Shown here: piece by piece, positions 25,597-61,643 of the stretch
Position numbering within the stretch: the stretch's first letter is position 1
Layout: each line of letters begins with the position of its first letter
Source: Candidatus Latescibacterota bacterium
Lineage (GTDB): Bacteria; Latescibacterota; UBA2968; UBA8231
Reading direction: 5' to 3'
Assembly: GCA_965248265.1 (NCBI GenBank)
Contig: CBDFJF010000002.1
Span: 3,395,052-3,459,051, forward strand
DNA: 64,000 bases
The notes under the pieces: generated by a model
Databases searched by the model: none
What the model was told of the DNA's origin: nothing
Seen by the model: the letters and a program-made list of their open reading frames with translations, nothing else
Translations under genes and position numbers: made by a program

Positions 25597-25738
25597 CGCA
25601 CGTTTTGTCGCGCTAACTCTCTGAACCTCAGTAAGTTAACGCCACCCTGCCGGATCCCGCCTCCCAAATTGCTCCCGGAAATTTAATCTATAAAGGATTG
25701 TCCCACCTGTGGGACAAGTTTAAACAATTTGCGCTGTG

Positions 25739-25801
25739 TGCCCCACAAACGAGAACCAGCCGGTTTTTTCGTTGAAATTCGCCCCTCGCTGACGTATCTT
25801 G
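25739..25801 (+). promoter_or_regulatory. two direct copies of 12-mer TGCCCCACAAAC/TGCCCCACAAG (putative operator), near palindrome GTCCCACCTGTGGGAC (25700-25715)
   Basis: Exact repeat copies at 25739-25750 and 25791-25801. A third copy sits at 28562-28573 with an inverted partial copy at 28538-28550, upstream of the HTH regulator gene. Confidence 0.4.
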
Positions 25802-26153
25802 CCCCACAAGTTAGCTTGCAGCCATAGGTCTCGGGCTACCATAGCCCGTAGTCAATAAGCCCTAAGCCATTGTGTCACATGGGCTTGTCCGGTATCAACT
25901 GTGGGGCGTCCTCCAAATCCCTCCCTGCAGGAGGGGGTGCCGCATCTGGGACGCATGCAATTATGTAAAGATGTATGCGTCCATGTGCGCTAGTCATCTC
26001 CCCCACCAACACCACCAGCAACAACCGACACGCCACCAGGACAACGCCTATGCCGTTTACCCAGCCTCAAGCACTCTCATCGTCCTCGCATTGGTTGCGC
26101 ACCCAGGCATACCCACAACACCCATTGCCACTATTTTCAGATACTTGTTGTCC

Positions 26154-26176
26154 ATGACATATTGTCATCCTATATT
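26154..26176 (+). promoter_or_regulatory. palindromic operator ATGACATATTGTCAT plus -10-like TATATT, candidate rightward early promoter
   Basis: Perfect 6-nt arms in an AT-rich stretch about 70 nt upstream of the first early gene. Confidence 0.35.
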
Positions 26177-26235: not shown

Positions 26236-26400
26236 ATGGTAACCAAGCTCAAGATCAGTAGGCCCAAACAGGGAACCAGGCTCAAGAAGGTGGAATGTGA
26301 ATCATGCGGGTACACGGCACGCGTTACCAAGGTCTGGCTGGAGATGTTGGGACCGCCACTGTGCCCATGCAATCGCAAGGCAATGACGGTAGTCGATTAG
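26236..26400 (+). CDS. small zinc-ribbon protein (54 aa)
   Basis: SD GGAAGGTG then ATG. CESCGY...CPC cysteine pairs. Preceded by a hairpin-(CTCA)n leader. Confidence 0.5.
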   Translation: MVTKLKISRPKQGTRLKKVECESCGYTARVTKVWLEMLGPPLCPCNRKAMTVVD

Positions 26401-26806: not shown

Positions 26807-27316
26807 ATGAGCGCATACGTAGTAGAACGAGATCACATCCGCTATATGGTCGAGGCCGCTGTATCAGGCACGTACCACAGTGGCGGGTTACGCTGGGTCA
26901 CGGGGTCACGGGTCGAGGGCACGGCACAGTGCCACACTCTTGACCAGGGTGACCTGGAGCACGCTGCGCGGATCGGGCAAATGCTATGGGATGAAAACGT
27001 CAAGAGCGTTTGCTATAGGTACGATGAACCCGCCGACTCAACCGACTTGCCCGGCCCGGTAGGCGAAACCTATACCTACGAGGTGCACCCGCTCACCAGC
27101 AGCACGGTAGACCCGCTGGCCGTGTTCCAGGTGCTCAGTTGCTACGAGTACCAGACGTGCGAGCACCCTGGATGGAACGACAGCGAAGCCTATACAATCG
27201 TCCAGGCGATCAAAGACAAGATGATTCGGCGTATCAGCGATGATGCACCGGGTTGGGGCGACGTGCCCAAGCTGCAGCCGTTCACGGGCATATCGCTATC
27301 CTCACTCATCAGATAA
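26807..27316 (+). CDS. hypothetical phage protein
   Basis: SD GGAGG then ATG after a (CTCA)5 leader. 169 aa. Confidence 0.55.
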   Translation: MSAYVVERDHIRYMVEAAVSGTYHSGGLRWVTGSRVEGTAQCHTLDQGDLEHAARIGQMLWDENVKSVCYRYDEPADSTDLPGPVGETYTYEVHPLTSSTVDPLAVFQVLSCYEYQTCEHPGWNDSEAYTIVQAIKDKMIRRISDDAPGWGDVPKLQPFTGISLSSLIR

Positions 27317-27328
27317 CTGGAGGGAATC

Positions 27329-28007: not shown

Positions 28008-28652
28008 TTTAGTGTATATTCACCAGTAGGTCGGTGGGAGCACCGACCTACACCACCCTCCAGGTGGTGAGTGAGTGCCCCCGTTGACCCCTGGTTGACG
28101 GGGGTCTACTCATACCTACCACAAAGGGCGGCCCCCATTCAGGGAACCGCCCTCTTCGTTTTAGGAACCGCAGGCGCATGACTATATCGCGGGTGAGCCC
28201 TCCAATCGGCCCACGACACGCGTAGCGGTCAAGCCTGCGCTACAGGGCGCACGAACGCCCGCCCTTTGATATACCACCGGTCGGGTGGTGGCAACGCTCC
28301 CACGCTGCACCCTCTCGGGCTTCAGGACGGACAAAAGCTGCCCCATCCTCCAGGACGCTTACCGGCTGTACGCCACTCCTTTTACCATCGGTCGGGTAAC
28401 GTTTAAACGATACCACATTCCGCAAGAAAAGTCCACAACTTTCTGCGCCCCAGCAGCTTACTCAATTTCTGGTTCATAGCAATGCGCTATGCTATGCCAC
28501 TGTGCGCCATGAGTGGATTGTTGGTTCTGTGGTGGGGCAAAATCCAACTATTTTGCCTGTATGCCCCACAAACTAAAATCCGGTCATTTTTCGCTTGCGG
28601 CGGGGTGTTTAAATGGCTTTCTTGCTATTCACTGGAGGGTGGTTTAAACGGT

Positions 28653-29441
28653 ATGGCTAATGAGATACAGGTGGCTCGCGAGCTGCGCGAGTTGACTCAA
28701 CGGCAGCTTGCGGAGCGCACCCAAGTGTCGAAATCAGGTATTTCGCGACTCGAAGGTGGTGAGGTGGAGCGAGTCGCGGTGAAGGATGTACGGGCGGTGT
28801 GTGTTGAGCTGGATCTGGCGTTAGAGGCGGTCGTCCCCCACAACACGGACCACCAAAACGATGTGCGAGCGCAGCGCTGGATAGGCCTGATAGCCAACCA
28901 GCTACTGCGGCGCACCTCGTGGCGGCAGCTGCCCGAGGCGCTGAGTCAGTGCACGCAGGATATACATTTCTATAGGCCCGAGATATCGGGCATGTCCATG
29001 ATCCTGGTGGACCATAACCGGCCCAACCATACCCTGTTCTATGGCTGCCTGATCGAGGGGGCACAGCATACGATCAACCTGCACCCGAGTGTCGTGCGGG
29101 ATAAGCTGGACAGTCTTCCGCCTGACACCGGGTACGTAGAGCAGATTAGCGGTAGCCCCGAGTGGTGCGCTGCTTCGTGGCGGCCCTTATGGTGCACGCA
29201 CCACCACTCTGAGTATGGAATATTCACGCTGCACAACCGGGCGGACCCGGAACGCGTCGGGGAAGCAGTCGAAACAGCCAGGCGCTGCAAGCGCGTGCTG
29301 GAAAAAGCTATCGCCCTGATCTACGCACTCTCCGATTTGGAGCGAGACGCCAGCATCATCGATCACGAGCATCGGCTGCGGGCGTTGGAGTCGCAGTTGC
29401 GAAGGGCATTAGAGGAAGAGGCGTATGGTTTAAACGAGTAA
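28653..29441 (+). CDS. XRE/CI-like HTH regulator with C-terminal domain (candidate prophage repressor)
   Basis: LTQRQLAERTQVSKSGISRLEGGE is the N-terminal HTH. 262 aa. Operator-like repeats lie upstream. Confidence 0.65.
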   Translation: MANEIQVARELRELTQRQLAERTQVSKSGISRLEGGEVERVAVKDVRAVCVELDLALEAVVPHNTDHQNDVRAQRWIGLIANQLLRRTSWRQLPEALSQCTQDIHFYRPEISGMSMILVDHNRPNHTLFYGCLIEGAQHTINLHPSVVRDKLDSLPPDTGYVEQISGSPEWCAASWRPLWCTHHHSEYGIFTLHNRADPERVGEAVETARRCKRVLEKAIALIYALSDLERDASIIDHEHRLRALESQLRRALEEEAYGLNE

Positions 29442-29628
29442 CGCCCCGCTGGGATTGAGGCCCAGCAGAGCGTTACAATGAGGCCCCAAATTAGCGTCAC
29501 TGATTTCACCCGACCAAAGGTAATAGGAGTTAGCCGTTTTGAGGTTAGCACAAATAAAAACACTCCAAGGGCATAGCGCAAGCAAAAAAGCGCATCCTGG
29601 CACAATCTCACACAAGGCGGGCGTTTAA

Positions 29629-30429
29629 ATGGCCCGCCCCTGCCGCAGCACCAACACCGCCCAGCTGGCGGCTGCCCTGGCCCACGTCCAGGCCAAGCTC
29701 AAGTCCGCTGAGAAGTCCTCAGTAAATCCCCACCTCAAGAACAAGTACGCCGACCTGGAGTCCATCTGGAACGCCCTGCAGCCGCTGCTGGGCCAGCAGG
29801 GCATCGCCGTCACCCAAGGCGGCGCTGTGACCGGCGGGGATGTCGTCCTGGTCACCACGCTCATGCTGGGTGACGAGTGGATAGAGTCGCGCATCCCTGT
29901 GCGGCCCGAGACCCAGAAGGGTTTAAACGCCGCGCAGTCTTTCGGCGTAGCCTGGAGCTACACCCGACGCTATGCCCTGGCTGCCATCTGTGGCGTGCAG
30001 ACGGGCGAGGACACGGACGGGGCTACCGACAAGCCATCCGTTCCACGTGGAGCACCGCCCGATATCCCCGAGGACGAGAACCCACCCGAGAAAAACAAGG
30101 CTCCGTACTACCGCTATCTGGAGCGCTGCCAACAACTGAAGAAGTCCCTCGATGACGACGAGGCGTACTACGAAATCCTGGCTGGCTTCAAGCTCAACAA
30201 ATCCAACCAAACCAAGGATGTCAACGTCATGTCCGATGTGGTCGTCGCCCTGCAGGAGGCGGTCGTCGCCCTGGTGGCTGCCCACATAGTGAACGCCGAG
30301 AAAAGGCGCAGGATGTCCAAGGCCACCATCGAGACCAAGCGCAGGGAGCTGCTTACGGATTGGAAGAGCCTGCACAAAAACAGCGAACTGTCCCTGCGCA
30401 AGTACCTGGCTTCCATAGGGGGGGAGTAA
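29629..30429 (+). CDS. erf: ERF-family single-strand annealing protein
   Basis: NPHLKNKYADLESIW, the ERF signature comparable to P22 Erf. 266 aa. Confidence 0.85.
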   Translation: MARPCRSTNTAQLAAALAHVQAKLKSAEKSSVNPHLKNKYADLESIWNALQPLLGQQGIAVTQGGAVTGGDVVLVTTLMLGDEWIESRIPVRPETQKGLNAAQSFGVAWSYTRRYALAAICGVQTGEDTDGATDKPSVPRGAPPDIPEDENPPEKNKAPYYRYLERCQQLKKSLDDDEAYYEILAGFKLNKSNQTKDVNVMSDVVVALQEAVVALVAAHIVNAEKRRRMSKATIETKRRELLTDWKSLHKNSELSLRKYLASIGGE

Positions 30430-30851: not shown

Positions 30852-31064
30852 GTGACGGAGAAGCGCGAACCCGCCGTCACCCGAGAGCTATTGAGTTCGC
30901 AGAAGAAACCGTTTAAACCGCCGCCCAGCAGGCCCTGGACGGATCAGGAAGCGGTAGCCGACTGGTTCGACGGGCACGACCAGCTAACCAGCAATGTGAC
31001 CTACACCGCTGCCCCGACTCAGGCGAATGTCTACATGGCATCAGCGCTGAGCAGCAACACATGA
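30852..31064 (+). CDS. hypothetical protein
   Basis: GTG start. Stop overlaps the next ATG (ATGA). Confidence 0.3.
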   Translation: MTEKREPAVTRELLSSQKKPFKPPPSRPWTDQEAVADWFDGHDQLTSNVTYTAAPTQANVYMASALSSNT

Positions 31065-31574: not shown

Positions 31575-32431
31575 GTCCGAAAACAACCGTCCGCTTAGGC
31601 ATAGGCCTTGTCGGTGTGATGTTCGTGATGATCGTACTGGCTGCCAGCTTTGAAACCGTGAGTACCAACCACGTCGCTGTGGGCCTGCGCTTCGGCAAGG
31701 TAACCGGCGACGTGCTGGACGAAGGGCTACACCTGGTTAACCCGATTCTCGACTGGGACCACTTCAACTGCTTGGAGCAGGAAGTCACCTTCAAGGGCAT
31801 CACGGTGCCCGCCGAGGATCAGATGAAGGCGACGATGGATGTCACGGTGAAGGGCAGGTTCATGCCCGCCCATGCCGTGGTGCAGCGTCGGGAAACCGGC
31901 ACGCAGCAGCAGGTGATCGCCACGCACTTTCAGCCCATTGCACGCGGTGCCCTGCGCGAGGCGGGACGCTCCACGTCGAAGGTCGAGGAGTTCTACGAGG
32001 ACTCCAAGGTTGAGGAGTACCAATCCAACGCCCTGGCCATCCTGCAGGAAGGGCTGTCTGCCAAGGGCTACGAGATCACCGACGTGATCGTGCGAGACGT
32101 GAGCCTGCCCGAAGTCATCACCGCTGCCATCACCGCCAAGAAACAGCGGGAACAGGAGGTTGAGAAACAGCGGGCTGAGCTGAGCCGCATCGAGCTGGTG
32201 GCCGAACAGAAGGTCAAGCAGGCCATCGCGGACCGTGATGCCGCCGTGGAGATAGCGGTGGCCATCAGGGTGACCGCCGAAGCCGAGGCTTACGCCATCG
32301 AGGTCAAGAAGGCTGAGCTAACCGACCAGTACATCTCGTTTAAACTGGCCGAGGCGTGGGACGGGGGACTGCCGAAGCTGATGGGTAGCGGCGTCGTGCC
32401 GTTTCTCGACCTCACCGCGATGACGCAGTAA
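31571..32431 (+). CDS. SPFH/Band-7 (stomatin/prohibitin/HflK-like) membrane protein
   Basis: N-terminal TM helix, SPFH core, then the charged coiled coil AKKQREQEVEKQRAELSRIELVAEQKVKQA... typical of HflK/C and stomatins. 286 aa. Confidence 0.85.
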   Translation: MSPKTTVRLGIGLVGVMFVMIVLAASFETVSTNHVAVGLRFGKVTGDVLDEGLHLVNPILDWDHFNCLEQEVTFKGITVPAEDQMKATMDVTVKGRFMPAHAVVQRRETGTQQQVIATHFQPIARGALREAGRSTSKVEEFYEDSKVEEYQSNALAILQEGLSAKGYEITDVIVRDVSLPEVITAAITAKKQREQEVEKQRAELSRIELVAEQKVKQAIADRDAAVEIAVAIRVTAEAEAYAIEVKKAELTDQYISFKLAEAWDGGLPKLMGSGVVPFLDLTAMTQ

Positions 32432-33304: not shown

Positions 33305-33654
33305 CCAAAACCGAGGTGTGCGTGCTCATCGACGGGCTGTGGGTCAGCAAGGCTCACCGCGACGGACTGAAGTACAAAATCAAGACCCGCACCTTTACGC
33401 CATCAGATTTGGATGAATGGGGCGGACGGTTTAAACGGGCTCTCGACAAGCAGCAGGAGCTGGTGATGGCCCACGCCAGCGGGGCGGCCGACGCCCAGGA
33501 AGTGCAGGAGTTGTCCCTGGACTACAGCGGCATCGAGCTAAAAAAGAAGAAACGCATGGCTGCAGGCAGGCTACTGCGTCAGGTAATCAAGGAGCAAGCC
33601 GGGTTGACCATCCCCGCTGACCTATCCCGTTCTGCCGTGGAGCAATACGTATGA
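33301..33654 (+). CDS. hypothetical protein
   Basis: ATGA overlap with the upstream stop. 117 aa. Confidence 0.45.
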   Translation: MTKTEVCVLIDGLWVSKAHRDGLKYKIKTRTFTPSDLDEWGGRFKRALDKQQELVMAHASGAADAQEVQELSLDYSGIELKKKKRMAAGRLLRQVIKEQAGLTIPADLSRSAVEQYV

Positions 33655-39030: not shown

Positions 39031-39625
39031 CGCTAAACCGTGGTCCACCCGGCACGATGTCGAAGGACGTGCACTCTGCGTCGGTGGGCTTCTTTGACCA
39101 CGGGTACGGCCGGTAGGAGACACACCGTTTAAATGCCTCCTTCTGCTCCTTGTTGGCACGCAGCATCTTACCCGGCGATATTTCGTCGTCCCACATGAGA
39201 CGCACGCACGACAGCACTGCATCAAAATAGCGCACCCATAGTGTTGACCCCCAAATCATCCGCGAGCCGAACGCGCAAGCCGTCGCCAGCATCGACATCG
39301 CAACAACATCCAGTAGGCCCACTTCGTCCCAGCCACGGATGTAATCAAGGACAAAGTTAATAGGGAGCCCAATGGCACAGGCCGCGACCGGGATTACGTT
39401 CCCTCTTCTAAGGCCTACCCAACGGTTGCGTGCGGTGTGCATGTAATCCACCATCCGCGCCATAGCTACCTGAGTCTCGGACTCTTGGGGCTGGTGCAAC
39501 TGCGACGGCACCGGAGGGGGTGCCTTGCCCCCGCAGCGCCAGCAGAAGTACTGGTCAGGCGGCGGGTCCATGAACAGCTGCCCCGCGTACATCGGCTCCT
39601 CACAGCTACAGCGCTTGTCTGTCAC
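39023..39625 (-). CDS. membrane protein with N-terminal zinc ribbon
   Basis: CSCEEP...CWRCGG followed by hydrophobic helices. 200 aa. Confidence 0.45.
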   Translation of the reverse strand: MTDKRCSCEEPMYAGQLFMDPPPDQYFCWRCGGKAPPPVPSQLHQPQESETQVAMARMVDYMHTARNRWVGLRRGNVIPVAACAIGLPINFVLDYIRGWDEVGLLDVVAMSMLATACAFGSRMIWGSTLWVRYFDAVLSCVRLMWDDEISPGKMLRANKEQKEAFKRCVSYRPYPWSKKPTDAECTSFDIVPGGPRFSDD

Positions 39626-39879: not shown

Positions 39880-40263
39880 TCATTTCGCTTCGTGGTAGAC
39901 CTTGGGGTGCGTCGCCTCACGCAGCATGTGATCGGGATACACGTCAGTCATCCCGGTGCGCACGCCCAAGCGGATGGGCTCCTTCGCTACCATGTTGTGG
40001 GTGATGGCAGCTTTGGTGAGACCAGCGCTGCTGTACAGATTGAGCTTGCGCATCAGGCTGTTCTTAATGGCGGAGACGGTTTGCCATTTGATGGACAGCA
40101 TTTCACCAATCTCCTCCAGATCAAACTCGCAAGCGACCAGCTCCCACACATCGCGCTCGCGTTGAGTCAGGTTGTCGCCGGGACGTGCAAGCCTACGAAA
40201 GACTCTCTTCTCTCCGCGCTTGAGCTTCTTCAAGGGCGTTGGTTTTCTCGTTCGCTTCGCCAT
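39880..40263 (-). CDS. LuxR/GerE-type HTH DNA-binding protein with basic N-terminus
   Basis: LTQRERDVWELVACEFDLEEIGEMLSIKWQTVSAIKNSLMRKL. Confidence 0.55.
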   Translation of the reverse strand: MAKRTRKPTPLKKLKRGEKRVFRRLARPGDNLTQRERDVWELVACEFDLEEIGEMLSIKWQTVSAIKNSLMRKLNLYSSAGLTKAAITHNMVAKEPIRLGVRTGMTDVYPDHMLREATHPKVYHEAK

Positions 40264-40923
40264 TTACATTGTCTCCAGTGCTGCCGTGTAGGCGTCTATG
40301 GATACCTGAATCGCGTCACGCTGTGCCGTGAGGTCATCAATGATTGCCTGCGTCCGACCGGGGAAGTCGTTGGTGCTGATACCTGACGTGGTGACGGCCT
40401 TGCCTGCGCGCTGGCCGGGAGACTCGTAGCCCTGCGCTCTGGCCGCACGCGCTTCAGCCGACTTGACCCGCGCATCTGCCAACGTCGCCCTGCGTTTCTC
40501 TGTCGTTACCTCAACCTCAGCGCCGAACGTCCTGACCCACGCGGTCAGGCTGTTGGATGACACGCCGACATCTCTGGCAACGTCACTGTTCGTTTCGCCT
40601 GCGAGGATGCGAGCCACAGCCTTGCGCTTGAAGCCGTCCGTGTAGCGCTTCTGCGCCTTCCCCTTCTGTGGGCCTTTGCCCGCTCGTGCGACTGCCGCCT
40701 GCCCTTGCATCCGTGTGGTCTCGGATTTTACGGGGGAGATGAGTTTCTCATCATTACACCAGCGACTGACGCTCTTCTGGTTGAGTCCCATAGCGTCGGC
40801 AATTGCCGACTGCGACTCTTTGCCTTTGAGAAACCGCCTGACCGCCTGCTTCTTGATTCGGATGCCGATGCGAGGCCCCTTCGCGTTCTCTGCTGTCGGC
40901 GCTGCTGCTTCCGTCGTTTCCAT
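40264..40923 (-). CDS. DNA-binding protein with two transposase-type HTH (IS3 OrfA-like) repeats
   Basis: RRFLKGKESQSAIADAMGLNQKSVSRW and FKRKAVARILAGETNSDVARDVGVSSNSLTAWVR. SD AGGAGG before ATG 40923. No DDE partner. Confidence 0.5.
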   Translation of the reverse strand: METTEAAAPTAENAKGPRIGIRIKKQAVRRFLKGKESQSAIADAMGLNQKSVSRWCNDEKLISPVKSETTRMQGQAAVARAGKGPQKGKAQKRYTDGFKRKAVARILAGETNSDVARDVGVSSNSLTAWVRTFGAEVEVTTEKRRATLADARVKSAEARAARAQGYESPGQRAGKAVTTSGISTNDFPGRTQAIIDDLTAQRDAIQVSIDAYTAALETM

Positions 40924-40963
40924 TACGTCCTCCTGAGTTGTATGGATTTTGAACAAGCCAGTG

Positions 40964-44423: not shown

Positions 44424-44472
44424 AAACGCCGGGATCTCGCTCATTTCGGAGCGCGGGTTCCGGCGTTTTTTG
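44424..44472 (+). terminator. rho-independent terminator between ssb and the packaging genes
   Basis: AACGCCGGGA...TTCCGGCGTT stem followed by TTTTTTGTG. Confidence 0.5.
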
Positions 44473-46478: not shown

Positions 46479-48547
46479 AACAAAAAGACATTGATTTCTG
46501 GAAAAAGCAGATCGATGCCACCAACCGCTTCATGGCTCCCAAGCACAAGGTGTGGAAACGTCTGCTGCAGCAGTACCGGCTGGAATTTGCCGACATGCCG
46601 GTCGAGGAGGCCAAGCAGCGCAAGATTTCGCGCTTCTATCCGATCACCCGCCAGATTATCGCCAGCATTGCCTTCTTCAATCCCCGCGTCTTGCTGCGGG
46701 TCGAGGACAACAACCGCGAGTTCCAGGCCGAGCTGCTGGAGCGTGTGGCCAACGACGCTCTGCGTTTGCAGAACGCCAAGCGGGAGATTCAGCAGCAGAT
46801 TTTCGACACGCTCTACTGCAACGTCGGCTGGGTCAAGATGGGCGTGAACCCACCCGGCGATAAAGAGCTGATCCCGCCTTATGTGGCCAACGACTCGCTG
46901 GCCAACGGCATGGTGTTTTTACAGCGGCGCTCGCCCTTCGACATCTACCCGGACCCGCTGACCCCGCCGCACGATTTCGGCCAAGCCCGCTTTATGCGCG
47001 AGGACATGCTGGCCCCCCATGAGTTTGTCATGGAGGACGAGCGCTTCAAGAAGTTTAAACACCGCGACCAGATTAAGCCGCTGTCTGACGCCGACGCCGA
47101 GGAGAAAATCCTGGAGAATATCCAGGAAGCCAATCCGGCATCGGAGGAGGAGGAGCGCCAAGCCATGATGGATTCGCGCATCGAGGGCAAGTACGTCCTC
47201 CTGCATGAAATCCATCATCGCACCAAGAAGAGGATGTACACCTTTGCCGAGGGCGTGGAGCAGCCGCTGGAGGACATCGAGCATCCCTTCCTGGCAGGCA
47301 CCACACTGACGGAAGCAGACCCGTTCACGGGCGAGGACCACATCGTTGGCTTCCAGGCCACCGAAGGGTTTTTAGTGGCCAACGGCTTCCCCTACATCCC
47401 GATGAAATTCGATAAGTCGTTCGACTCCTTCTACGGCTTGCCGATGATGGGCTACGATGAGGACATCCAGGAGGGCATCATCGAGTCGATGTCCCGGCGC
47501 ATGGACAACCTCAAGCGCGGCGCTCGCATGGTGGTGGGCAACCAGAAGGAAAAAGCGCTCAACCCCAACATCGAGGAAGAGTTCGCCAAGGGCGATGACG
47601 GCCACATTCTTTGGTCGAACGACCCGAACAACAGTTTCCGCGAAGTGCTTACCGGTAACATTCTGCCCGACCAGTTGGGCACCGAATCCGACCTGCGTAA
47701 CTACGAAGAGCAGATACTGCAGGTGGGAGCCACGTCGGTGGGCGGCTCGCGGACGACGGCCACACAGGCGTCTCTAACCGCGTCGTTCGGCCAGCTCAAT
47801 CGGGAGTGGATGCAAGATGAAGTAGCGCGGGTGTTTGAGGACGTGTCCTACAACAACCTGCGCATCATGGGCGACAAGCGCTACACCCCCAACAACTTCA
47901 TCGTCAACGTCGAGCAGTCGGACAATGACCCGGTGTACGAGGCCGTGACCTCCGACATGCTGCGGGCGCGGTTCAAGGTGCAAATCGAGGCGGGTTCGAT
48001 GAAGCCGCTGTTCGATCAGCTGGAACGCGACGACGCCTTGGCCTTGTTCAACTACCTCATCCAGGTGCCCGAGGTACCACGCCAGGAGTCGTTGAAGCTG
48101 CTGCTGCGTGCCTTCCGGGTTCCCAACATCGAAAAGTTCTTGGGCGACGAAGCCCACACCGATGCGGTGCGAGCTGCACAGCTGGAAAACATGCTGATGC
48201 TACAAGGCCAGCCTCTGCAGGTTACGCCGCTTGAAAATCACATGGTGCACATGCGCCACCATCAGCAGCTGTTTGCCGCTCCGCACTACACGCAAATGCT
48301 ACCGCAACAGCAGCAAATCGTGCAACAGCTGGTGGTGCAGCACATGCAACTCCACGAGCAGGCGTTGGCACAGCGGGCGCAGGGTCTTCGACCTGGACCC
48401 TCCAATGTGTCCGACGCTGGAGGAGGTGGCGGCGGTGGTGGTCCTATGGAAACCGTGCAGGCGGCTACCGGTAAGGTGGACTCAGCCGTTCGCTCCTCCG
48501 CTCAAACGATTGGCCAGAAGGTCAACATAGACGCGAATCAAAATTGA
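46475..48547 (+). CDS. portal protein
   Basis: 690 aa following the terminase. Q-rich and Gly-rich C-terminus. Confidence 0.7.
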   Translation: MKQKDIDFWKKQIDATNRFMAPKHKVWKRLLQQYRLEFADMPVEEAKQRKISRFYPITRQIIASIAFFNPRVLLRVEDNNREFQAELLERVANDALRLQNAKREIQQQIFDTLYCNVGWVKMGVNPPGDKELIPPYVANDSLANGMVFLQRRSPFDIYPDPLTPPHDFGQARFMREDMLAPHEFVMEDERFKKFKHRDQIKPLSDADAEEKILENIQEANPASEEEERQAMMDSRIEGKYVLLHEIHHRTKKRMYTFAEGVEQPLEDIEHPFLAGTTLTEADPFTGEDHIVGFQATEGFLVANGFPYIPMKFDKSFDSFYGLPMMGYDEDIQEGIIESMSRRMDNLKRGARMVVGNQKEKALNPNIEEEFAKGDDGHILWSNDPNNSFREVLTGNILPDQLGTESDLRNYEEQILQVGATSVGGSRTTATQASLTASFGQLNREWMQDEVARVFEDVSYNNLRIMGDKRYTPNNFIVNVEQSDNDPVYEAVTSDMLRARFKVQIEAGSMKPLFDQLERDDALALFNYLIQVPEVPRQESLKLLLRAFRVPNIEKFLGDEAHTDAVRAAQLENMLMLQGQPLQVTPLENHMVHMRHHQQLFAAPHYTQMLPQQQQIVQQLVVQHMQLHEQALAQRAQGLRPGPSNVSDAGGGGGGGGPMETVQAATGKVDSAVRSSAQTIGQKVNIDANQN

Positions 48548-49831: not shown

Positions 49832-49867
49832 CGGCGGCGGTGTCTCCGTAGGACGGAGACTTTAAAC

Positions 49868-52577: not shown

Positions 52578-53325
52578 AAAGTTCCTGCCCCACTTCATTG
52601 AGTGGTACGCCGGGAACAAACTCAAGCACGAGCTGGAGCTGGTGTGGCAGATGTATCGCCCGTTGCACAAGGCCCAACGCGAAGGAGTGAAAGCGGCACA
52701 GCGACTGGGCGCATCCCACATCTTGTTCACGGAAGACGACCAATGGGGGTTCCCGCTGGACGGGCTGGACGTGTTACTAAAAGAGGACAAGGATGTCATC
52801 GGGTTCAGTACCTACATGCGCTCGTATCCCCACCTGCCCATGCACATGCGTAAGGTGGATGAGTCCATACCGCTGGTTGATGAGCAGATGCGCAAAAACC
52901 TCAAGCCGGTGGCAGTGGGGGATGGGCCTGACGTACAAGCGGTCGATTTAATTACCTGGGCGTTTACCCTGGTAAAGGTGGACGTGTTTAAACGATTGGA
53001 AAATGACCCCTTTGCCCAGTGGGGAGAGTCACCGACCGACAGTTATTTCAGCCAGTACTGTGATGACGTAGGCATTAAGCGGCACACGCATTTCGGCTAC
53101 ACCATCGGCCACGGCGACGTGGCCCCCGAGCACGTGCCGTTCAGTCGCAGGATGTGGGAATCTATTCATTCGGCGGCGGGCGTATTCGCGGAGGATGCTG
53201 TTACCGCTGACGCCCGACCGGAAATCAACGACGCCAAGCTGCACGAGAGGGAGATGGAAGCTATGGAGGCAGATGCACTGGCAAATCGACCCACGGACTT
53301 GCCGTGGATGGTGGAGGCAGCATGA
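52540..53325 (+). CDS. GT-A-like glycosyltransferase (putative)
   Basis: VCVPF...FTEDDQW has a DxD-like core. 261 aa. Coupled to the flanking GT genes. Confidence 0.45.
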   Translation: MIVVCVPFLKPHKKFLPHFIEWYAGNKLKHELELVWQMYRPLHKAQREGVKAAQRLGASHILFTEDDQWGFPLDGLDVLLKEDKDVIGFSTYMRSYPHLPMHMRKVDESIPLVDEQMRKNLKPVAVGDGPDVQAVDLITWAFTLVKVDVFKRLENDPFAQWGESPTDSYFSQYCDDVGIKRHTHFGYTIGHGDVAPEHVPFSRRMWESIHSAAGVFAEDAVTADARPEINDAKLHEREMEAMEADALANRPTDLPWMVEAA

Positions 53326-55795: not shown

Positions 55796-57324
55796 TGCCT
55801 ATCGACGGCGACTCAATCATTCATGGTCCGTGGACGGGTGGTGCCATCTACAACCTGCCCCCAGAAAACCTGGAGGAGGACCAGTGCACGGACACCATCA
55901 ACGTGCGCATCGGGCAGGCAGGTGAGGCCGAGAAGCGACGCGGCTCGCTCAATTACAAGTCGGTGCGCCAGAACATCGCCGCCGACCCCAACGTGATGGC
56001 GTGCGGGCAGTACCGGGAATCAGCGACATCCACCCCAGTGTTCAAGTCGGTAGCCGCCGTGTTTTACGAGTACACGGGTGGCTCCTGGGTTGACCGCACC
56101 GGGGGCCAGACGATTACAGCGGACAAGACGTTTGAGTGGGCGGGGGCTAACGGCACGCTGGCGCTGACCAACGGCACGGACGCTCCGCTGAAGTGGACGG
56201 GCGCGGGCAATAATCTCGCATTGCTCGATGTGGACTCTCAGTTCACGACGGCATTGCACGTCGCCTATTGGGACAACCGGTTGTGGATGGCCAATACCAA
56301 CGCCAACACCGACCGGCTGTGGCACTCCGATTTGGGCGCTATCGAAACCTGGGCGGCGACCAGTTTCTACAACCTGGGCTCTGAAGTTATCGGGCTCATG
56401 CCGGTGTCGGACTCGTTGGCCATTCACACGGTGGACGGGATTCACACGCTGACACCCACGGGCAATAGCACCATCCCGTACCAGCGCCAGCAGCAGACCC
56501 AGCAGGCCAGCGTATCGGGGCGGGCCATCCTCACGGTTCCAGGGAACCGTCAGTTCTTTGTGCAGGACGAGGGGATTTACGAATGGGATGGCGACAAGGA
56601 GGTGACCAAGGCGTCGGTCGCGTTGGATGATGGCTACTGGGACAGTTTAAACGAGGCGCAGCTGGATAGCACGTTCGCGGTGTACTACCGCATTAACAAC
56701 GAGCTGTGGTTCTGGCTGCCCTACGGCACGTCGCAGACCAACATGAACGACATCATGGTCTACAACCTGGAGAAAGAGCGATGGCATGGGCCGTTTCGGG
56801 GCAACGCGTCAACGACCTACTACGAGCGAGCCTGCGCCGCCTTGATCGACAGCAAACCACACGCTGGAGACTTCCTTGGCGAGGTGGTCGATCACGACCC
56901 GGTGGACACCTACACCGATGTGAACGACGCCACCACCAACGCCATTCACGCGCAATTCACGACCAGCGCCAAGGCACCTGAAGGCGAGGCGAAGCGGCTC
57001 AAGTGGTTGTTCTCTCGTAGCTACTTCGACTCGGTGGGTGACTTCGATGTGACTCTGACGCAGCTGTCGTCGGGGCTGTCGGGTACCAGCGAAACGGTGG
57101 ACATGGGGGCGTCGGGTTTCACGCTGGACAACGACAAACTGGACCTCACGTCACTGGGCTCCATTCGCGTGCAAGCCAAGGACGCGGAGCTAAGTGGCTA
57201 CGACCCTCACTCATCGGTCACGGTCACGCAGAACGTGTCTGCTGAGTTCTTCCGCTACCGGAAGATAGTCCAGGTGTACAAGGAAATCGGAATCAAACGT
57301 AAACGAGCAGCAGGAGTCAGTTGA
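55795..57324 (+). CDS. virion protein (tail accessory/beta-rich)
   Basis: 509-aa ORF in the tail-side module. Confidence 0.45.
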   Translation: MPIDGDSIIHGPWTGGAIYNLPPENLEEDQCTDTINVRIGQAGEAEKRRGSLNYKSVRQNIAADPNVMACGQYRESATSTPVFKSVAAVFYEYTGGSWVDRTGGQTITADKTFEWAGANGTLALTNGTDAPLKWTGAGNNLALLDVDSQFTTALHVAYWDNRLWMANTNANTDRLWHSDLGAIETWAATSFYNLGSEVIGLMPVSDSLAIHTVDGIHTLTPTGNSTIPYQRQQQTQQASVSGRAILTVPGNRQFFVQDEGIYEWDGDKEVTKASVALDDGYWDSLNEAQLDSTFAVYYRINNELWFWLPYGTSQTNMNDIMVYNLEKERWHGPFRGNASTTYYERACAALIDSKPHAGDFLGEVVDHDPVDTYTDVNDATTNAIHAQFTTSAKAPEGEAKRLKWLFSRSYFDSVGDFDVTLTQLSSGLSGTSETVDMGASGFTLDNDKLDLTSLGSIRVQAKDAELSGYDPHSSVTVTQNVSAEFFRYRKIVQVYKEIGIKRKRAAGVS

Positions 57325-57327
57325 GCT

Positions 57328-59910
57328 ATGAGTGAATACTACTTTCCAACAGATAGAGAGCGCCCCCGTCCTCCCCCGCGACTGAGGGAGGACCAGAAAA
57401 TAGATATGCCGGTGTGGGAGTTTTTGAAGCCAAGTCAATTCCAAAGCTTCGAGGACTTGCTGAAAAGAGCAGAGTCGTTCAGGCCCAGCGCTGGTTTGAC
57501 GAGTGCGCTACAGGGTGCCCCAGCGGCAGGCAAGGCACTGCAGGGGTTCAGCAACTTCCGCTCGCCCTCTGGTTTTAACCAGTTCGTTGGACAGGTGGGT
57601 ACTGCTGAAACTCAGATAGGCGGGTTTCCGCAAGGGCTCCAGACTGCCCTTGGAGACGCCAAGAGTTTGACGGGCGAGCTGAGAACAGCGAACGACCTGT
57701 TGGGTGGTGGTTCGTTCGGCGGCGAGCCCTTCGGTGGCATCATCGCTGAAGCGCAGGATCAGGTTAAGGGGGTGCAAGACGAGGTAAATAAGCTGAGAGT
57801 TGATCCCAATCAGCTGCTGGGACCGAACCTCGAAGCCGACCTACTGGCAGCCCTGCAGGGTCGCAACATGCCGACCATCGACCCCAACCGTTTTATTGAC
57901 GAGCCGGGGTTGGATACGGCTATTCGGCAGCTGCGTCCTGAAACCATTGACCCAAATCTGTTGCTCGATGAGACGGGACTTAACACTGCCGTGCGTGATC
58001 TTCGACCCGAAACGATTGACCCGAGCCGGTTGCTTGATGAGGGCGGGATCAATACCGCGATTGGCAACCTCCTTCCTCAACAGATTGATCCCAGCCTGCT
58101 GCTTAATGAGGGTGGAATTGACGACGCTATCGCGGGCCTTCGTCCTCAGACAATAAAATCAGACCTACTGCTGAACGAAGGTGGCATCAACGACGCTATC
58201 GCAGGGCTGCGCCCAACACAGCAAATCGACCCTGGCCTGCTACTTAATGAGGGCGACATCAACGCTGCCATTGGAAACCTGCTGCCTCAACAGATTAACC
58301 CCGACCTACTGCTTAATGAGGGTGGAATTGACGACGCTATTGGAAACCTGCGTCCTCGACGAATTGACGCTGGCCGCTTAATGCCGGGTGGTTTTGATCT
58401 GGCCAACGCGGTACGTGATCTCGACGTGCCTCAGGTAGAAGCCGGTCGCCTGCTCCCAGGCACAGGTGCGCTGGAGGATGAGCTGGCACGGACACCGATT
58501 GACCGGCTGTCGCCAAGCAGGATATTGCCTGAGTTGCCTGGGTTGAACGAAGCCATCCAGGCACTGGAAGTTGATCGCATAGGAGCTGGACGGCTACTTC
58601 CAGGTGAGGGTGAGCTGAGCGCAGAGCTGAGACGCACGCCCATCGAAAGGCTGGCGGCCAGTCGGGTGCTGCCTGAAAGGCTGAATGAGGCGTTGCGCAC
58701 GGCTGTCTCACGGCTGAGTACGGACGAGGTGCTGCCCAGGGGTGATCTGAACGATGCACTCCAGGACCGCGTAGGGCGTCTCACGGAGGATCAAATCTTC
58801 CCCACTGGTGACTTGAATGCAGCTCTCGGCGGGCGTGTAGATAGGCTCACGGCGGGTGACGTGCTACCTACGGGCGATTTAAACGCTGCACTGCGTGACC
58901 GGGTGGACCGACTCGGGGCAGGCGATGTGCTGCCCGAGGGGGATTTGGGTGGGGCTCTGCGTGATCGGGTAGGACGCCTTACCGAGGATGACATCTTTCC
59001 TGGCGGTGATTTAAACGCCTCGCTGCGCGACCGGGTGGGTGGTCTGACGGAGAGCGACATATTCCCAGATGACTTGCAGTCCATTCTGGAGGGCCGGGTC
59101 AACCCGCTGCAGGCAGATGACCTCATCCCACGGACTGGGGCGCTGGCCGATGTGTTGCGTGACCGCCGTCCTGGCCTGCTCGACCTACTGGAGTTCCCTG
59201 AGTTTACCAACCTACTGGACGAGCGCTTGCCCGAGGGCAGTATCCCAGGTATTGAGGCGCAGCTGGCTGGGCTCGCAGAGCAGGGTGGAACGGGAGGTGG
59301 GGGAACTGGGACTGGAGGGACAGGCACGGGCACTACTGTGCCAGCCCCTGCGACGGGACTCGACGCCTTTCTTGAACAGTTGCAGGGAGTCGTTGGGAAC
59401 CTGACCACTGGACCGGAGACATCCGACGAGCTGCGCCAAGACCCGCTCACGGCGTCCCTGTTGGCTGATTTTGAGGATCAGAGCGGGCGTGATCGTTCAC
59501 AGGCGATGGAGGACTTGCAGCGTCTGGGCGTGCTGGGCGACGGCGATACCGCTGACGTGCTGGGTGAGCTGACAAGCGGCCAGCGTCGAGGTGAGTTCGA
59601 CATCCTGGGCGATGCGGCTGAGCGCTTCCGCACCGACCGTAGCCAGGGCTTGGGTGCTGGCGTGGACTTGTTCGGCGCAGCTGGCCAGCGCGAGCTGGGC
59701 CTGGGTCAGCTGGGCCTGCAGGGACAGGAGATGGATATGGCCATCCTGTCGCAGGTGGCATCACTGCTCGACCCGAACCTCCACCTGGATGCCAAGGGAG
59801 GGAAGAACCTGGAACTGGCAAGTATCCTGCTTTCACTCTCAGGGCTGCCGCCTGACAAGCAAGCGCAGCTGCGCAAAGCATTGGGATTACCCCCCCAGTC
59901 AGGGAGCTAA
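57328..59910 (+). CDS. 860-aa virion protein built of three families of 22-24-aa tandem repeats (about 25 copies)
   Basis: Repeats like IDPxLLLNEGGIxxAIxxLRP, RLLPGxGxLxxELxRTPIxRL and DxLPxGDLNxALRDRVxRLTxx. Gly/Thr-rich linker GGTGGGGTGTGGTGTGTT. Confidence 0.6.
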   Translation: MSEYYFPTDRERPRPPPRLREDQKIDMPVWEFLKPSQFQSFEDLLKRAESFRPSAGLTSALQGAPAAGKALQGFSNFRSPSGFNQFVGQVGTAETQIGGFPQGLQTALGDAKSLTGELRTANDLLGGGSFGGEPFGGIIAEAQDQVKGVQDEVNKLRVDPNQLLGPNLEADLLAALQGRNMPTIDPNRFIDEPGLDTAIRQLRPETIDPNLLLDETGLNTAVRDLRPETIDPSRLLDEGGINTAIGNLLPQQIDPSLLLNEGGIDDAIAGLRPQTIKSDLLLNEGGINDAIAGLRPTQQIDPGLLLNEGDINAAIGNLLPQQINPDLLLNEGGIDDAIGNLRPRRIDAGRLMPGGFDLANAVRDLDVPQVEAGRLLPGTGALEDELARTPIDRLSPSRILPELPGLNEAIQALEVDRIGAGRLLPGEGELSAELRRTPIERLAASRVLPERLNEALRTAVSRLSTDEVLPRGDLNDALQDRVGRLTEDQIFPTGDLNAALGGRVDRLTAGDVLPTGDLNAALRDRVDRLGAGDVLPEGDLGGALRDRVGRLTEDDIFPGGDLNASLRDRVGGLTESDIFPDDLQSILEGRVNPLQADDLIPRTGALADVLRDRRPGLLDLLEFPEFTNLLDERLPEGSIPGIEAQLAGLAEQGGTGGGGTGTGGTGTGTTVPAPATGLDAFLEQLQGVVGNLTTGPETSDELRQDPLTASLLADFEDQSGRDRSQAMEDLQRLGVLGDGDTADVLGELTSGQRRGEFDILGDAAERFRTDRSQGLGAGVDLFGAAGQRELGLGQLGLQGQEMDMAILSQVASLLDPNLHLDAKGGKNLELASILLSLSGLPPDKQAQLRKALGLPPQSGS
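57880..59060 (+). repeat. coding tandem repeats (unit about 66-72 bp)
   Basis: Recurrent DNA units, e.g. CTGCT(A/G)CTTAATGAGGG(T/C)GG(A/C)AT(T/C)(G/A)ACGA(C/T)GCTAT. Confidence 0.6.
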
Positions 59911-59913
59911 GTC

Positions 59914-60255
59914 ATGCCTGAACCTGTCACGACAATGATTGCCACGCAGATGGCGCTCAAGGCATTGGGTTCCATCCTGGGTGGCCGTGATGCCAAGAAG
60001 GCCCGCAAGCGGGCAGCTGAAGCCCAGGCGCACGCCAACCTCGTGCCCAATGGCGGACAGCGGATAGTACCGGAGCTACCGCAGCCAAACTTTGCCCAGG
60101 TGCTGGGCAGCGGACTGGACCCGCTGATGGCTCTGCTGTTGCAGCGCAGCGGGGGGAACGCCCTGCCTGCGGATAAAGCGAAGGCCCCCGTTACGGCACC
60201 CAGCACAGCAGGAAGCAACCCCTTGCAGGACTTGATGAGGATACTGCGACGATGA
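59914..60255 (+). CDS. hypothetical virion protein
   Basis: 113-aa ORF. Confidence 0.4.
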   Translation: MPEPVTTMIATQMALKALGSILGGRDAKKARKRAAEAQAHANLVPNGGQRIVPELPQPNFAQVLGSGLDPLMALLLQRSGGNALPADKAKAPVTAPSTAGSNPLQDLMRILRR

Positions 60256-61643
60256 CACTGGCAGCGACACAGGTAGACCCGGCAGTCCGGGCACAGCTGG
60301 AGCAGCAAGCTGGCCGTCCGCTGTCGGACGAGGAGATACAGCAGCTACTCAACGAGCTGACCACGCCACAGATCAGTGCGTCCACCTCGTCGGCAGCCAC
60401 GGCCACGGCACCCGCAGCGCAGGAGGAGAGTGGCGGCCTGATGTCCAAGGTGGGTGGGCTGTTTAAACGGGATGACGGCCTGGGGTTCCGGTTGCTGCAG
60501 TCGCTGGGCAATGTCGGCTCTGGTATCTCGCGGAGCCGTGCCATCAGCAACGCCAACAAAGCCAACGCTGAGTCGGGCGCTCATGCCAACCTCGTCAACG
60601 CCCTGGCTCGACGCCGGGTGGCTTCGGGTACGCGCACCCAACCGACGCTGGGCCTGATGGGGCAGCTCTCAGGGGCCGTGGGCGAAGTGGGACAGGCTGG
60701 GCTGGATATTCAACAGCTGGGCAGAAAGGAGGAGCAGCGGGGGATTGACAACGCGCAGGCCGAGCGTAGAACGCGGGCCACCGAGTTGAGCGCACAAAGC
60801 AGCCTCCTGCGTTCACTCGGGAAGTCCCCGACTGTAAAGACGCTGACGAAAGAGCAGCGCGATTCTATCGTGCGCCTCATCAAAGGGGGCACGGACCTGG
60901 ACTTGAGCGTGTTTACCAAAGCAGACCAGCTGGCCATTCGTGGTCTCGTTGACCACCCGGAGCCGCAGGAGTTTGAGTTTACGGAGGGGAACGAGAAGGA
61001 GCTACACAGCATCGGCTACCGCAATTCCAAGGCGGACGCCAAGGAGTTGATGCCTGACTGGGTGCCCGAAGCCCACAGGCAATCGGCTATTGGGATGATC
61101 GTGGCGGGGCAGGATGATTTCGAGGTAGAGGACGAGGACGAGTTGGACCCGGACCCCGCCGCCGCGCAGTCGGCGTTCCTCCTGGATGAGCTTGAAAAGA
61201 CATGGGACGAAGCGTCGTTCACCGGGCTCGGTAAGAGCGCAGCTGATGCTGTGGGGCTGGACTTCGATGAGGGCGGCTTTACCCGACGACTCGCCCCTGC
61301 TTCGGCAGACCTGAATGACCAGCTGGAGACAATGGGGCTGGCGCTGGCCAAGGAGCTACAGGGTGCACGTGCCTCCGACCTCGACCTCAAGACAGCGAAA
61401 AAGGCACTGCCGAGACAGACCGACAGCGACGAGCTGGCGAAGCGCAAGTTTAAACGGCTGCGCGAGGCAGCGAGGGTCAAGCGGGAGGAGATGGAACAGG
61501 GTATCGACCAGCCTTTAATCATCGGCACTCGGGCGGGCGTTGCTGTTCTGCGCACGGACAAAGACTTGACGGTGGACGATACACGCGAATCCGAAACAGA
61601 GGATACGGGCAGTACTAACTTCGATGCGGTTAAGGTTGAGTGA
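60252..61643 (+). CDS. virion/ejection-like protein
   Basis: 463-aa ORF, ATGA-coupled. Confidence 0.45.
   Translation: MTLAATQVDPAVRAQLEQQAGRPLSDEEIQQLLNELTTPQISASTSSAATATAPAAQEESGGLMSKVGGLFKRDDGLGFRLLQSLGNVGSGISRSRAISNANKANAESGAHANLVNALARRRVASGTRTQPTLGLMGQLSGAVGEVGQAGLDIQQLGRKEEQRGIDNAQAERRTRATELSAQSSLLRSLGKSPTVKTLTKEQRDSIVRLIKGGTDLDLSVFTKADQLAIRGLVDHPEPQEFEFTEGNEKELHSIGYRNSKADAKELMPDWVPEAHRQSAIGMIVAGQDDFEVEDEDELDPDPAAAQSAFLLDELEKTWDEASFTGLGKSAADAVGLDFDEGGFTRRLAPASADLNDQLETMGLALAKELQGARASDLDLKTAKKALPRQTDSDELAKRKFKRLREAARVKREEMEQGIDQPLIIGTRAGVAVLRTDKDLTVDDTRESETEDTGSTNFDAVKVE

Follow-up and report, generated by a model that had tools for sequence, protein, structure and literature searches.

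Short DNA words that recur around a genome have been described in cells, phages and plasmids. The cyanobacterial HIP1 (GCGATCGC) is an octameric palindrome that lies in coding and non-coding DNA, in any reading frame that permits it and far above expectation. The stoperators of cluster A mycobacteriophages, which are the sites of the L5 gp71 repressor, amount to some 20-30 copies of a short word spread genome-wide and favouring short intergenic gaps, and in IncP plasmids the operators of KorA (GTTTAGCTAAAC) and KorB (TTTAGCSGCTAAA) are palindromes with GTTTA/TAAAC arms that are repeated 7-12 times and are read by dimers encoded by the element itself. Phages usually purge short palindromes. Here, we analyse GTTTAAAC, an octamer concentrated in a prophage on contig CBDFJF010000002.1 of a Candidatus Latescibacterota bacterium (GenBank assembly GCA_965248265.1), within the 64,000 nt stretch from position 3,395,052 to 3,459,051 that is called the window throughout, together with a zinc-ribbon gene of the same prophage that is related to the SprT-like protease genes of other phages. 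GTTTAAAC shares the properties just listed for HIP1 and the stoperators, and has in common with the KorA and KorB sites its arms, its repetition round a mobile genome and the position of some of its copies far from promoters.

GTTTAAAC in the prophage part of the window

A pattern search found 15 exact copies of GTTTAAAC within 25718-61455, which is the number given in an earlier account of the window made from its sequence alone (the original prediction), though two of the positions listed there were wrong (42925 not 42935, and 60461 not 60471; all sites are in Table 1). Less than one copy had been expected by chance, and dinucleotide-preserving shuffles (n=100) indeed gave a mean of 0.22 copies and a maximum of 2. 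Scoring against Markov expectations, which the same account had proposed, gave 0.25, 0.20, 0.21, 0.79 and 2.3 copies for orders 0, 1, 2, 3 and 4, respectively; chance cannot account for such an excess, which is seen in the prophage alone. In an unbiased scan of all 8-mers GTTTAAAC was the most over-represented word of the phage part by a wide margin (z = 46). The segment 1-25600 contains no copy, as had been noted, and also no TTTAAA. The 23 occurrences of TTTAAA in 25601-64000 are flanked by G..C (15), A..C (4), G..T (3) or C..C (1), so that RTTTAAAY accounts for 22 of the 23. The seven one-mismatch copies of this form recorded earlier (GTTTAAAT three times and ATTTAAAC four times) are all present, and CTTTAAAC is an additional one-off copy. 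Two copies do form part of the longer palindrome CGTTTAAACG. A 3′ G had been claimed for 11 of the 15 copies; we count 10. The preference for a 3′ G in the window (50 %) does not clearly exceed the rate at which G follows AAAC in general (38 %), and an extended motif was rejected.

Four of the exact copies (copies 1, 2, 3 and 10) are non-coding, in agreement with the report of intergenic copies, and the other 11 lie inside genes. Counting sites that are non-coding or overlap a start codon gives 4/15 exact copies and 7/23 TTTAAA cores (exact copies included). The statement that all three reading frames are used was incorrect, as the coding copies occupy only two frames because the third contains TAA. 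A reading as a frameshift signal (U_UUA_AAC) was dropped, given that both usable frames are used about equally and that many copies are non-coding.

Forty open reading frames (ORFs) of the phage part contain 19 places where the peptide permits GTTTAAAC synonymously, and 11 of the 19 are filled, which requires the rare leucine codon TTA (32 of 883 leucine codons) or the minority codons TTT and AAA. At 47053, the relatives described below have different amino acids and therefore the word has also shaped the protein. Hence, the filling of synonymous opportunities with rare codons and the sites with differing amino acids in relatives sustain the earlier view that selection acts on the DNA and not on the protein. 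The flanks of the 15 copies are unrelated to one another and form no structure, and searches of the window against Rfam, at the gathering threshold and at E ≤ 5, returned only tRNAs and no repeat or ribozyme units. The CTGACGAGGGGTGC core of the twister ribozymes found in relatives is likewise not above chance in the window. A dispersed repeat element (such as twister units) was rejected as the source of the window copies, their flanks being unrelated and tRNAs being the only Rfam matches.

Spread among related and unrelated phages

Viral contigs with a terminase large subunit (TerL) ~80 % identical to that of the window share the module from SSB to the tail genes at 71-73 % nucleotide identity. 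Two of them, L001 and L004, contain 14 copies of GTTTAAAC in 21.5 kb and 12 in 20.8 kb, respectively, and no CTAG, and U4873, a rebuilt 38.8-kb contig that runs from the integrase to the tail fibres, likewise lacks CTAG and carries 19 copies. Across the aligned module, 44420 between SSB and terS is the sole position at which the window and its relatives (L001, L003 and L004) both have a copy, and the others occur in one genome only; density is kept and positions have mostly turned over. Tara contigs L093-L100 (TerL 81 %) have 2 copies each per 12-13 kb (1 in each of the two shorter ones), the expectation being 0.02. L006 and L087-L092, which form a sister lineage of G+C content (GC) 0.52, have 0 copies and normal CTAG (51 in 21 kb), and no zinc-ribbon homologue was found in the loci examined, including the L087 stretch that adjoins retained homologues of 27329-28007. 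The TerL and TerS of this lineage are nevertheless 83-84 % and 67 % identical to those of the window and the terminases of the enriched phages are unrelated, which makes the suggested role of GTTTAAAC as the site of a packaging protein unlikely.

Enrichment extends to phages of other kinds. A scan of IMG/VR for the hairpin-tip sequence GCACGTTTAAACGTGC led to L199, an unrelated phage with 15 copies in 12 kb, in unrelated contexts and with normal CTAG. Its genes include a primase-helicase, Erf, PD-(D/E)XK and MoxR/VWA proteins, and the only protein it has in common with U4873 is an SprT-like metalloprotease with a C-terminal zinc ribbon. We compared 80 viral loci fetched by SprT-like homology alone, from which two already known contigs were excluded to leave 78, with 80 fetched by distant TerL homology, a locus being called enriched if it has at least 3 copies and a Poisson p < 1e-3. 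Enriched loci made up 41/78 of the SprT-fetched and 0/80 of the TerL-fetched set (Fisher 1.8e-16), and 41/62 and 0/64, respectively, when GC was restricted to 0.35-0.65. At 70 % identity the SprT proteins form 27 lineages, 13 of which include enriched loci. A motif-first sample of 120 loci, found only through one CGCGTTTAAACGCG site, pointed the same way, in that 11 were enriched and 4 of these 11 carry an SprT gene within the ~10-kb locus, compared with 5/104 of the non-enriched (p = 0.005). Gene-content association within the SprT sample mostly recovered phylogenetic groups, and from the window only the 169-aa neighbour of the zinc-ribbon gene (26807-27316) was common. The SprT-like gene itself is present in 164 INPHARED records, and a protein search returned >1500 homologues.

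When 15 representative genomes were pooled, 146 copies were found in 361 kb against 2.9 expected, ~50-fold over an order-2 Markov model. The tolerated one-base variants in this set were GTGTAAAC/GTTTACAC (6.7-fold), RTTTAAAY (3.1-fold) and GTCTAAAC (2.9-fold), 37 % of the sites lie at gene boundaries versus 9 % non-coding DNA, and at 11/146 a gene terminates on the internal TAA. The enriched phages are those of Gemmatimonadota, Dinoroseobacter, Pseudomonas and Achromobacter, together with metagenomic phages, and span GC 0.37-0.65. The most motif-rich cultured phage is Dinoroseobacter phage vB_DshS-R5C (77.9 kb, GC 0.62), in which 17 of the 19 TTTAAA are GTTTAAAC (0.04 copies expected) and ~7 copies are intergenic; its sites extend to (G)CGTTTAAACG(C), i.e. 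GCGTTTAAACGC, a palindrome of 10-12 bp. Pseudomonas phage Persinger and Achromobacter phage Mano each contain 4, where 0.10-0.14 would be expected. In these two, and in Escherichia coli phage ep3, one site precedes the SprT-like start codon by 18-26 bp, and in tblastn searches the zinc ribbon was the only non-generic protein of the window to match R5C, Persinger, Mano and ep3. R5C is described as lytic (PMC5454422), and its paper does not mention the motif copies.

Several further features of these phages were recorded. R5C encodes a full 7-deazaguanine (preQ0/DpdA-like) pathway and hence probably has modified DNA; genes of this kind are not seen in the window phage. In one large group of SprT-bearing contigs with GC ~0.45 (L265, L253, L267 and similar) every copy is found beyond the start of the SprT-like gene, beginning with one at +62 to +68 within it, no copy occurs in the 10 kb upstream that hold TerL, and several consecutive small genes end with the TAA of the motif. 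Other palindromes are enriched in two loci: in the TerL-fetched L016 (IMGVR_UViG_3300027533_000209) CTTTAAAG occurs 7 times in 5.6 kb, where 0.07 are expected, and accounts for all of its TTTAAA, and in L288 (IMGVR_UViG_3300035099_000022), whose SprT-like protein belongs to the ‘CGC..RMT’ subclade, CTTGCAAG occurs 11 times in 14 kb (0.76 expected).

Twister ribozymes of Type-P5 (RF02684) are abundant in two of the motif-rich relatives, with 11 in L001 (1781-7237) and 14 in L004 (696-6446), on the minus strand and scoring 40-57 bits against a gathering threshold of 37.6. In these marine temperate phage contigs they fill almost every intergenic gap of the early operon, each with a conserved ACTCACTCAC leader and then a ribosome-binding site downstream, an arrangement that suggests a polycistronic early RNA which would cut itself into single-gene messages. 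GTTTAAAC forms the tip of the long twister hairpin in ~9-10 copies per contig, the remaining units having GTGTAAAC or GTTTACAC there, and the arms covary; part of the L001 and L004 counts thus rides on duplicated units. In the window only twister 3′ remnants (ATTAAGTGAC, a hairpin and ACTCACTCAC) are found, at ~26170-26230 and 26400-26450. L001 and L004 also have two extra genes (210 and ~340-360 aa) between TerL and the portal gene (L001 11494-13142; window 46475) that the window lacks, and some TerL homologues returned by the protein search are ~740-810 aa long, some with intein or homing-endonuclease domains.

A candidate reader and the alternatives

The zinc-ribbon protein of the window retains all four cysteines and the basic KQGTR arm of the alignment signature KQGTR..K..C..CGY..R.T..W...P.CPC. 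In family alignments A2 to A4, T, R, 2 Cys, R, W and P are invariant and K, Q, G and Y nearly so. Its structural model is a rubredoxin-like C4 ribbon that follows the basic arm (predicted local distance difference test score, pLDDT, 85.7). The HExxH protease domain, present in the full-length phage homologues, was not found in the 54-aa ORF, and no remnant of it was detected in any plus-strand frame of the 750 bp upstream. The model of one full-length homologue, P0124 (pLDDT 90.6), gave as its best PDB matches 6MDW and 6MDX (probability 0.97 and 0.93), over the whole length and with a low TM-score; both are structures of the SprT domain of human SPRTN. SPRTN is a DNA-activated protease and its zinc domain binds DNA. 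A sequence search of the PDB with the family profile returned nothing meaningful, and a word-index search with the 54-aa protein alone gave no candidates.

That GTTTAAAC is a real, selected, DNA-level motif borne by phages we hold to be very likely. It is probable, with distinctly less assurance, that the word is the site of a phage-encoded protein, and the identification of the zinc ribbon as that protein is a tentative proposal that may well prove wrong. The reading that we favour as a whole, to which we give a probability of roughly 45 %, is that GTTTAAAC serves as a docking site, dispersed over the genome, for a dimeric DNA-binding protein of the phage, the candidate reader being the ribbon of 26236-26400. 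Of the roles originally proposed, that of a site for a phage DNA-binding protein fits best. The data show the enrichment, its DNA-level character, positions that change at a density that is kept, occurrence in unrelated phages and hosts and a statistical association with the gene family; the binding itself, the part of the ribbon in it and the purpose it would serve we infer. The word would be a short symmetric DNA address, multiplied along a temperate phage chromosome and read as double-stranded DNA by a dimeric phage protein. Its copies occupy intergenic gaps and 5′ leaders, especially of the early region, and within genes most of the positions that the protein permits. In phages with the full-length protein the sites might bring the protease to phage DNA, where it could, for instance, remove host proteins bound there, and the prophage of the window would have kept only the DNA-binding module.

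Several observations fit the favoured reading. The exact symmetry of the word, its extension to 10-12 bp in R5C and the tolerance of changes in one half-site are what duplex recognition by a symmetric protein would lead one to expect. The spread across hosts and GC contents and the absence from host DNA argue for a reader that the phage encodes, and against a factor or restriction system of the host or a drift in composition. The density is maintained although individual positions come and go, and coding opportunities are near saturation, which implies a benefit that scales with copy number; such a benefit suits a mark for loading or recruitment over the whole chromosome better than a few operators. 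The window prophage encodes the ribbon but no protease, and yet it carries 15 copies, so that the word is tied to the former and not to the latter. The SprT-like zinc ribbon is the only candidate reader that co-occurrence points to. A more specific version, in which an SPRTN-like protease (or the ribbon alone) docked at the palindrome would mark the DNA as ‘self’ and strip or cleave bound host proteins (silencers, defence nucleases or stalled complexes), is speculative and we think it unlikely. If true, this would be the first sequence-addressed SprT member and would reveal a new principle of anti-defence or genome maintenance, common to phages of many phyla, and docking of the protease would give a virus a new way to tell its own DNA from that of its host.

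A number of results weigh against the zinc ribbon as the reader. Enrichment is absent from 14 of the 27 SprT lineages, including all loci with GC >0.68 (actinophage-like) and two mid-GC subclades, and E. coli phage ep3 has the SprT-like gene and only 4 copies against 0.93 expected, which is not significant. No residue of the ribbon separates enriched from non-enriched phages. With half of the lineages unenriched and no such residue, the gene is not sufficient and its link to the word could be indirect, through a shared early module. The zinc domain of SPRTN binds single-stranded DNA without sequence specificity, and we know of no SprT-family protein that recognizes a specific duplex sequence. 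A fold search with the 54-aa ribbon returned only generic zinc ribbons, the site nearest to its gene in the window is 518 bp upstream, and, since the window ends inside the prophage, another reader gene may lie beyond 64 kb.

The closest rival is a global transcription regulator with stoperator-like operators, read by the XRE-type helix-turn-helix (HTH) protein or the HTH_Tnp/GerE pair of the prophage (Table 1), which would silence or time transcription. It would account for the three sites in the control region 28347-28652, of which one separates the Shine-Dalgarno sequence of the HTH gene from its ATG, for the position-conserved site that lies ahead of the late genes, flanked by a promoter-like site and a terminator-like hairpin, for a fourfold intergenic enrichment and for the sites in the 5′ leaders of R5C, Mano, Persinger and ep3; moreover, the GerE/HTH_Tnp pair is common to the window and U4873. 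Operators would not, however, be expected to come near to saturating the coding opportunities, and at tblastn sensitivity no regulator gene is common to the enriched lineages. An 8-bp palindrome also appears too short for a classical HTH dimer, the half-sites of which are generally ~10 bp apart. R5C, moreover, is described as lytic (PMC5454422). We consider operators of this kind unlikely. A HIP1-like palindrome linked to methylation or restriction, in which a methyltransferase for TTTAAA or GTTTAAAC and biased repair would create and keep the sites, is improbable. GTTTAAAC is an exact 8-bp palindrome and a type II target (PmeI/MssI), and the same phage extremely avoids another palindrome, CTAG. 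The one-base deviations in the window favour the outer positions (RTTTAAAY), as is reportedly the case for HIP1 (Elhai, in 2015); the pooled set, in contrast, tolerates deviation at position 3/6 and not at the ends. Scans with PHROG and Pfam profiles and for [DNS]PP[YFW] found no methyltransferase and no DPPY/NPPY motif in real ORFs of the phage part of the window, U4873 and L199, and none is annotated in R5C, so the earlier idea of a modification target found no support. The enrichment of ep3, which has a methyltransferase, is not significant, the word is not in host DNA while the enriched phages infect very different hosts, and a repair bias cannot raise TTTAAA itself tenfold.

A signal at the level of RNA, with GUUUAAAC in transcripts marking points of processing, dimerization or translation coupling between genes, seems very improbable to us, as exact reverse-complement symmetry is characteristic of words that are recognized in duplex form, no structure is formed by the sequences around the window sites and most sites lie inside ORFs without positional logic. 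The observations that speak for it are the apical loops of the long hairpin in the intergenic twisters of L001 and L004, the TAA that stops consecutive small genes in the GC 0.45 group (pooled 11/146) and several copies between a Shine-Dalgarno sequence and a start codon; twisters with GUGUAAAC or GUUUACAC loops, on the other hand, score equally well as ribozymes. The last alternative takes the word for a by-product, which would either reflect the composition or mutational bias of the host pool or have been carried along on a multiplied repeat. Among close TerL relatives the motif does co-vary with GC (0.58-0.62 vs 0.52) and with the total loss of CTAG, and ~9-10 copies per contig in L001 and L004 ride on duplicated twister units. 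The host chromosomal DNA of Gemmatimonadota is nevertheless almost without TTAA and TTTAAA, and enrichment is seen at GC 0.37-0.65 and with normal CTAG, in phages of very different hosts, which contradicts the host-pool signature originally offered. There is no twister in the window, where the flanks are unrelated, and a 50-fold excess over an order-2 Markov model would have to be explained. We regard the by-product reading as largely refuted and its probability as close to negligible.

Prophage setting and relation to described systems

The left 25.5 kb of the window is ordinary chromosome with genes for an amine oxidase, a spermidine synthase, an adenylosuccinate lyase-like protein, mreB, mreC, three tRNAs and miaA (24554-25477). 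The MreB is 90 % identical to that of a marine Gemmatimonadota metagenome-assembled genome, the next-best matches being near 62 %. A temperate-phage-like region begins after miaA and continues to the end of the window, which at 64 kb is still inside the prophage. Its left attachment junction is probably GCGGGAGTAGTTCAGGGGTAGAACGCAAGCTTCCCAAGC, just after miaA, in which an acceptor, D arm and anticodon loop can be recognized and which is broken in the anticodon stem; ARAGORN called no tRNA at this position. The DNA that is rich in TTAA and free of CTAG sets in at this junction. A tRNA-Ser(UGA) gene lies within the early region at 32640-32711 (ARAGORN; Rfam 53.8 bits). The region includes small early genes and genes for the XRE-type HTH protein, Erf, an SPFH protein and a Mu Gam-like protein, a minus-strand block with the HTH_Tnp/GerE pair, and genes for SSB, a small HTH_8 protein (probably TerS), TerL, a portal-like protein, the major head protein and tail proteins. 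The 169-aa protein encoded downstream of the zinc ribbon has no Pfam or PHROG match and, judged by synteny, is part of an early module with the SprT-like gene. Upstream of terS, a promoter-like site (TTGACA-17-TATTGT, 44371-44399) is followed by the conserved GTTTAAAC and then by a hairpin with a T-run (44446-44469), and the same order in L001, L003 and L004 recalls the lambda PR′-tR′ late control region. Megablast of 24 kb against INPHARED gave no match to a known phage, and a scan of GTDB representatives with TerL found no close prophages.

The phage part contains CTAG once (25990) versus ~55 expected, and none in the 38 kb beyond. CTAG is also completely absent from L001-L005 and L093-L100, and U4873 has 0 in 38.8 kb, which suggests strong restriction pressure on a CTAG-containing site in the host group. 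GATC is halved, and TTAA is 8 times denser than in the host part. In Gemmatimonadota chromosomal loci (window 1-25600, L101, L104-L106, L115-L117 and L122) TTAA occurs at 0-0.5 per kb, against ~1-1.7 per kb by our own estimate from base composition at host GC, and TTTAAA is all but absent; the host thus hardly ever contains the phage word.

Table 1. Sites of GTTTAAAC and its variants, and other features of the prophage (positions in the window)
Feature	Position	Strand	Context
Probable left prophage junction	25545..25585	+	GCGGGAGTAGTTCAGGGGTAGAACGCAAGCTTCCCAAGC; resembles 5′ half of tRNA-Gly(CCC)
GTTTAAAC copy 1	25718..25725	.	Intergenic, directly after hairpin near left prophage end; ~46 bp upstream of promoter-like -35 hexamer
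C4 zinc-ribbon protein	26236..26400	+	54 aa, free-standing; good Shine-Dalgarno; homologous to C-terminal zinc domain of phage SprT/SPRTN-like proteases
169-aa protein	26807..27316	+	Homologue ~1.6 kb downstream of SprT-like gene in 8 other motif-rich phage loci
GTTTAAAC copy 2 (as CGTTTAAACG)	28401..28408	.	Divergent control region 28347-28652
GTTTAAAT variant	28607..28614	.	Control region 28347-28652; 35 bp from copy 3
GTTTAAAC copy 3	28642..28649	.	Between GGAGG ribosome-binding site and ATG (28653) of HTH gene
XRE-type HTH protein	28653..29441		ATG at 28653
GTTTAAAC copy 4	29428..29435	.	Coding G-L-N; 6 bp before HTH gene stop
GTTTAAAT variant	29623..29630	.	Overlaps Erf gene ATG (GTTTAAATG)
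GTTTAAAC copy 5	29921..29928	.	Coding G-L-N, Erf gene
GTTTAAAC copy 6	30911..30918	.	Coding F-K
GTTTAAAC copy 7	32338..32345	.	Coding F-K, SPFH gene
GTTTAAAC copy 8	33429..33436	.	Coding F-K
GTTTAAAT variant	39127..39134	.	Sole TTTAAA of copy-free stretch 33.5-42.9 kb
HTH_Tnp/GerE pair of minus-strand block	39880..40956	-
GTTTAAAC copy 9	42925..42932	.	Coding R-L-N
GTTTAAAC copy 10 (as CGTTTAAACG)	44420..44427	.	Between promoter-like site and terminator-like hairpin, upstream of terS
ATTTAAAC variant	44924..44931	.	~45 bp upstream of TerL ORF start 44976; inside overlapping candidate TerS ORF 44608-45015
GTTTAAAC copy 11	47053..47060	.	Coding F-K, portal gene
CTTTAAAC	49860..49867	.	Between ribosome-binding site and ATG of major capsid gene; L001, L003 and L004 have GTTTAAATG there
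GTTTAAAC copy 12	52986..52993	.	Coding F-K
GTTTAAAC copy 13	56645..56652	.	Coding S-L-N
ATTTAAAC variant	58877..58884	.	860-aa tail gene
ATTTAAAC variant	59009..59016	.	860-aa tail gene
GTTTAAAC copy 14	60461..60468	.	Coding F-K
GTTTAAAC copy 15	61448..61455	.	Coding F-K
ATTTAAAC variant	63783..63790	.	Near window end

Full-text literature searches found no description of GTTTAAAC enrichment or of the function of a phage SprT-like protein. Accumulation of ~50-fold in at least 13 independent lineages with very different hosts points to a portable, phage-encoded reading function that is seemingly undescribed, and gives a first functional handle on the very common phage genes for ‘SprT-like proteases’. 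With the cultured phages R5C, Persinger and Mano among those enriched, the question can be addressed in culturable systems, and GTTTAAAC could be used as a simple marker by which to recognize such phages and prophages in genomes.

The parallel with HIP1 extends to the use of other palindromes by some lineages (CTTTAAAG by L016 and CTTGCAAG by L288 in the present case). HIP1, however, is found in cellular genomes that have cognate orphan methyltransferases, whereas GTTTAAAC is confined to phage DNA, no such enzyme was found in the phages searched, the host genome being covered only within the window, and the word co-occurs with an SprT-like zinc-ribbon gene. The host chromosome is not enriched, with 0 copies and 0 TTTAAA in 25.6 kb of host DNA. 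Stoperators are read by a phage-encoded protein, and a reading of the same kind is what we propose for GTTTAAAC. They are 13 bp long, asymmetric, oriented with transcription, almost all intergenic and limited to one temperate cluster, whereas GTTTAAAC is a perfect palindrome that fills coding opportunities and occurs in unrelated phages, including lytic ones. The KorA and KorB operators differ from it in sequence and length and neither protein has a homologue here, and it is probably by coincidence that the words look alike. DNA uptake sequences and Chi are also short words at high density, the positions of which turn over and of which more copies are apparently better; these are asymmetric, biased in orientation and enriched in the host, whereas GTTTAAAC is symmetric and not found in the host part. 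The site of PmeI/MssI is identical to GTTTAAAC, but phages would be expected to avoid restriction targets, and here one has accumulated 50-fold in phages of many hosts; in the phage part of the window, U4873 and L199 no gene for a cognate methyltransferase or endonuclease was seen. The full-length phage relatives of SPRTN and SprT combine the HExxH domain with a zinc-binding domain, and the window protein is the ribbon alone. Hence, the enrichment of GTTTAAAC belongs among the palindromic or protein-binding words that are iterated genome-wide, such as HIP1, the stoperators and the KorB sites, and is tied to a protein family without a known sequence-specific member.

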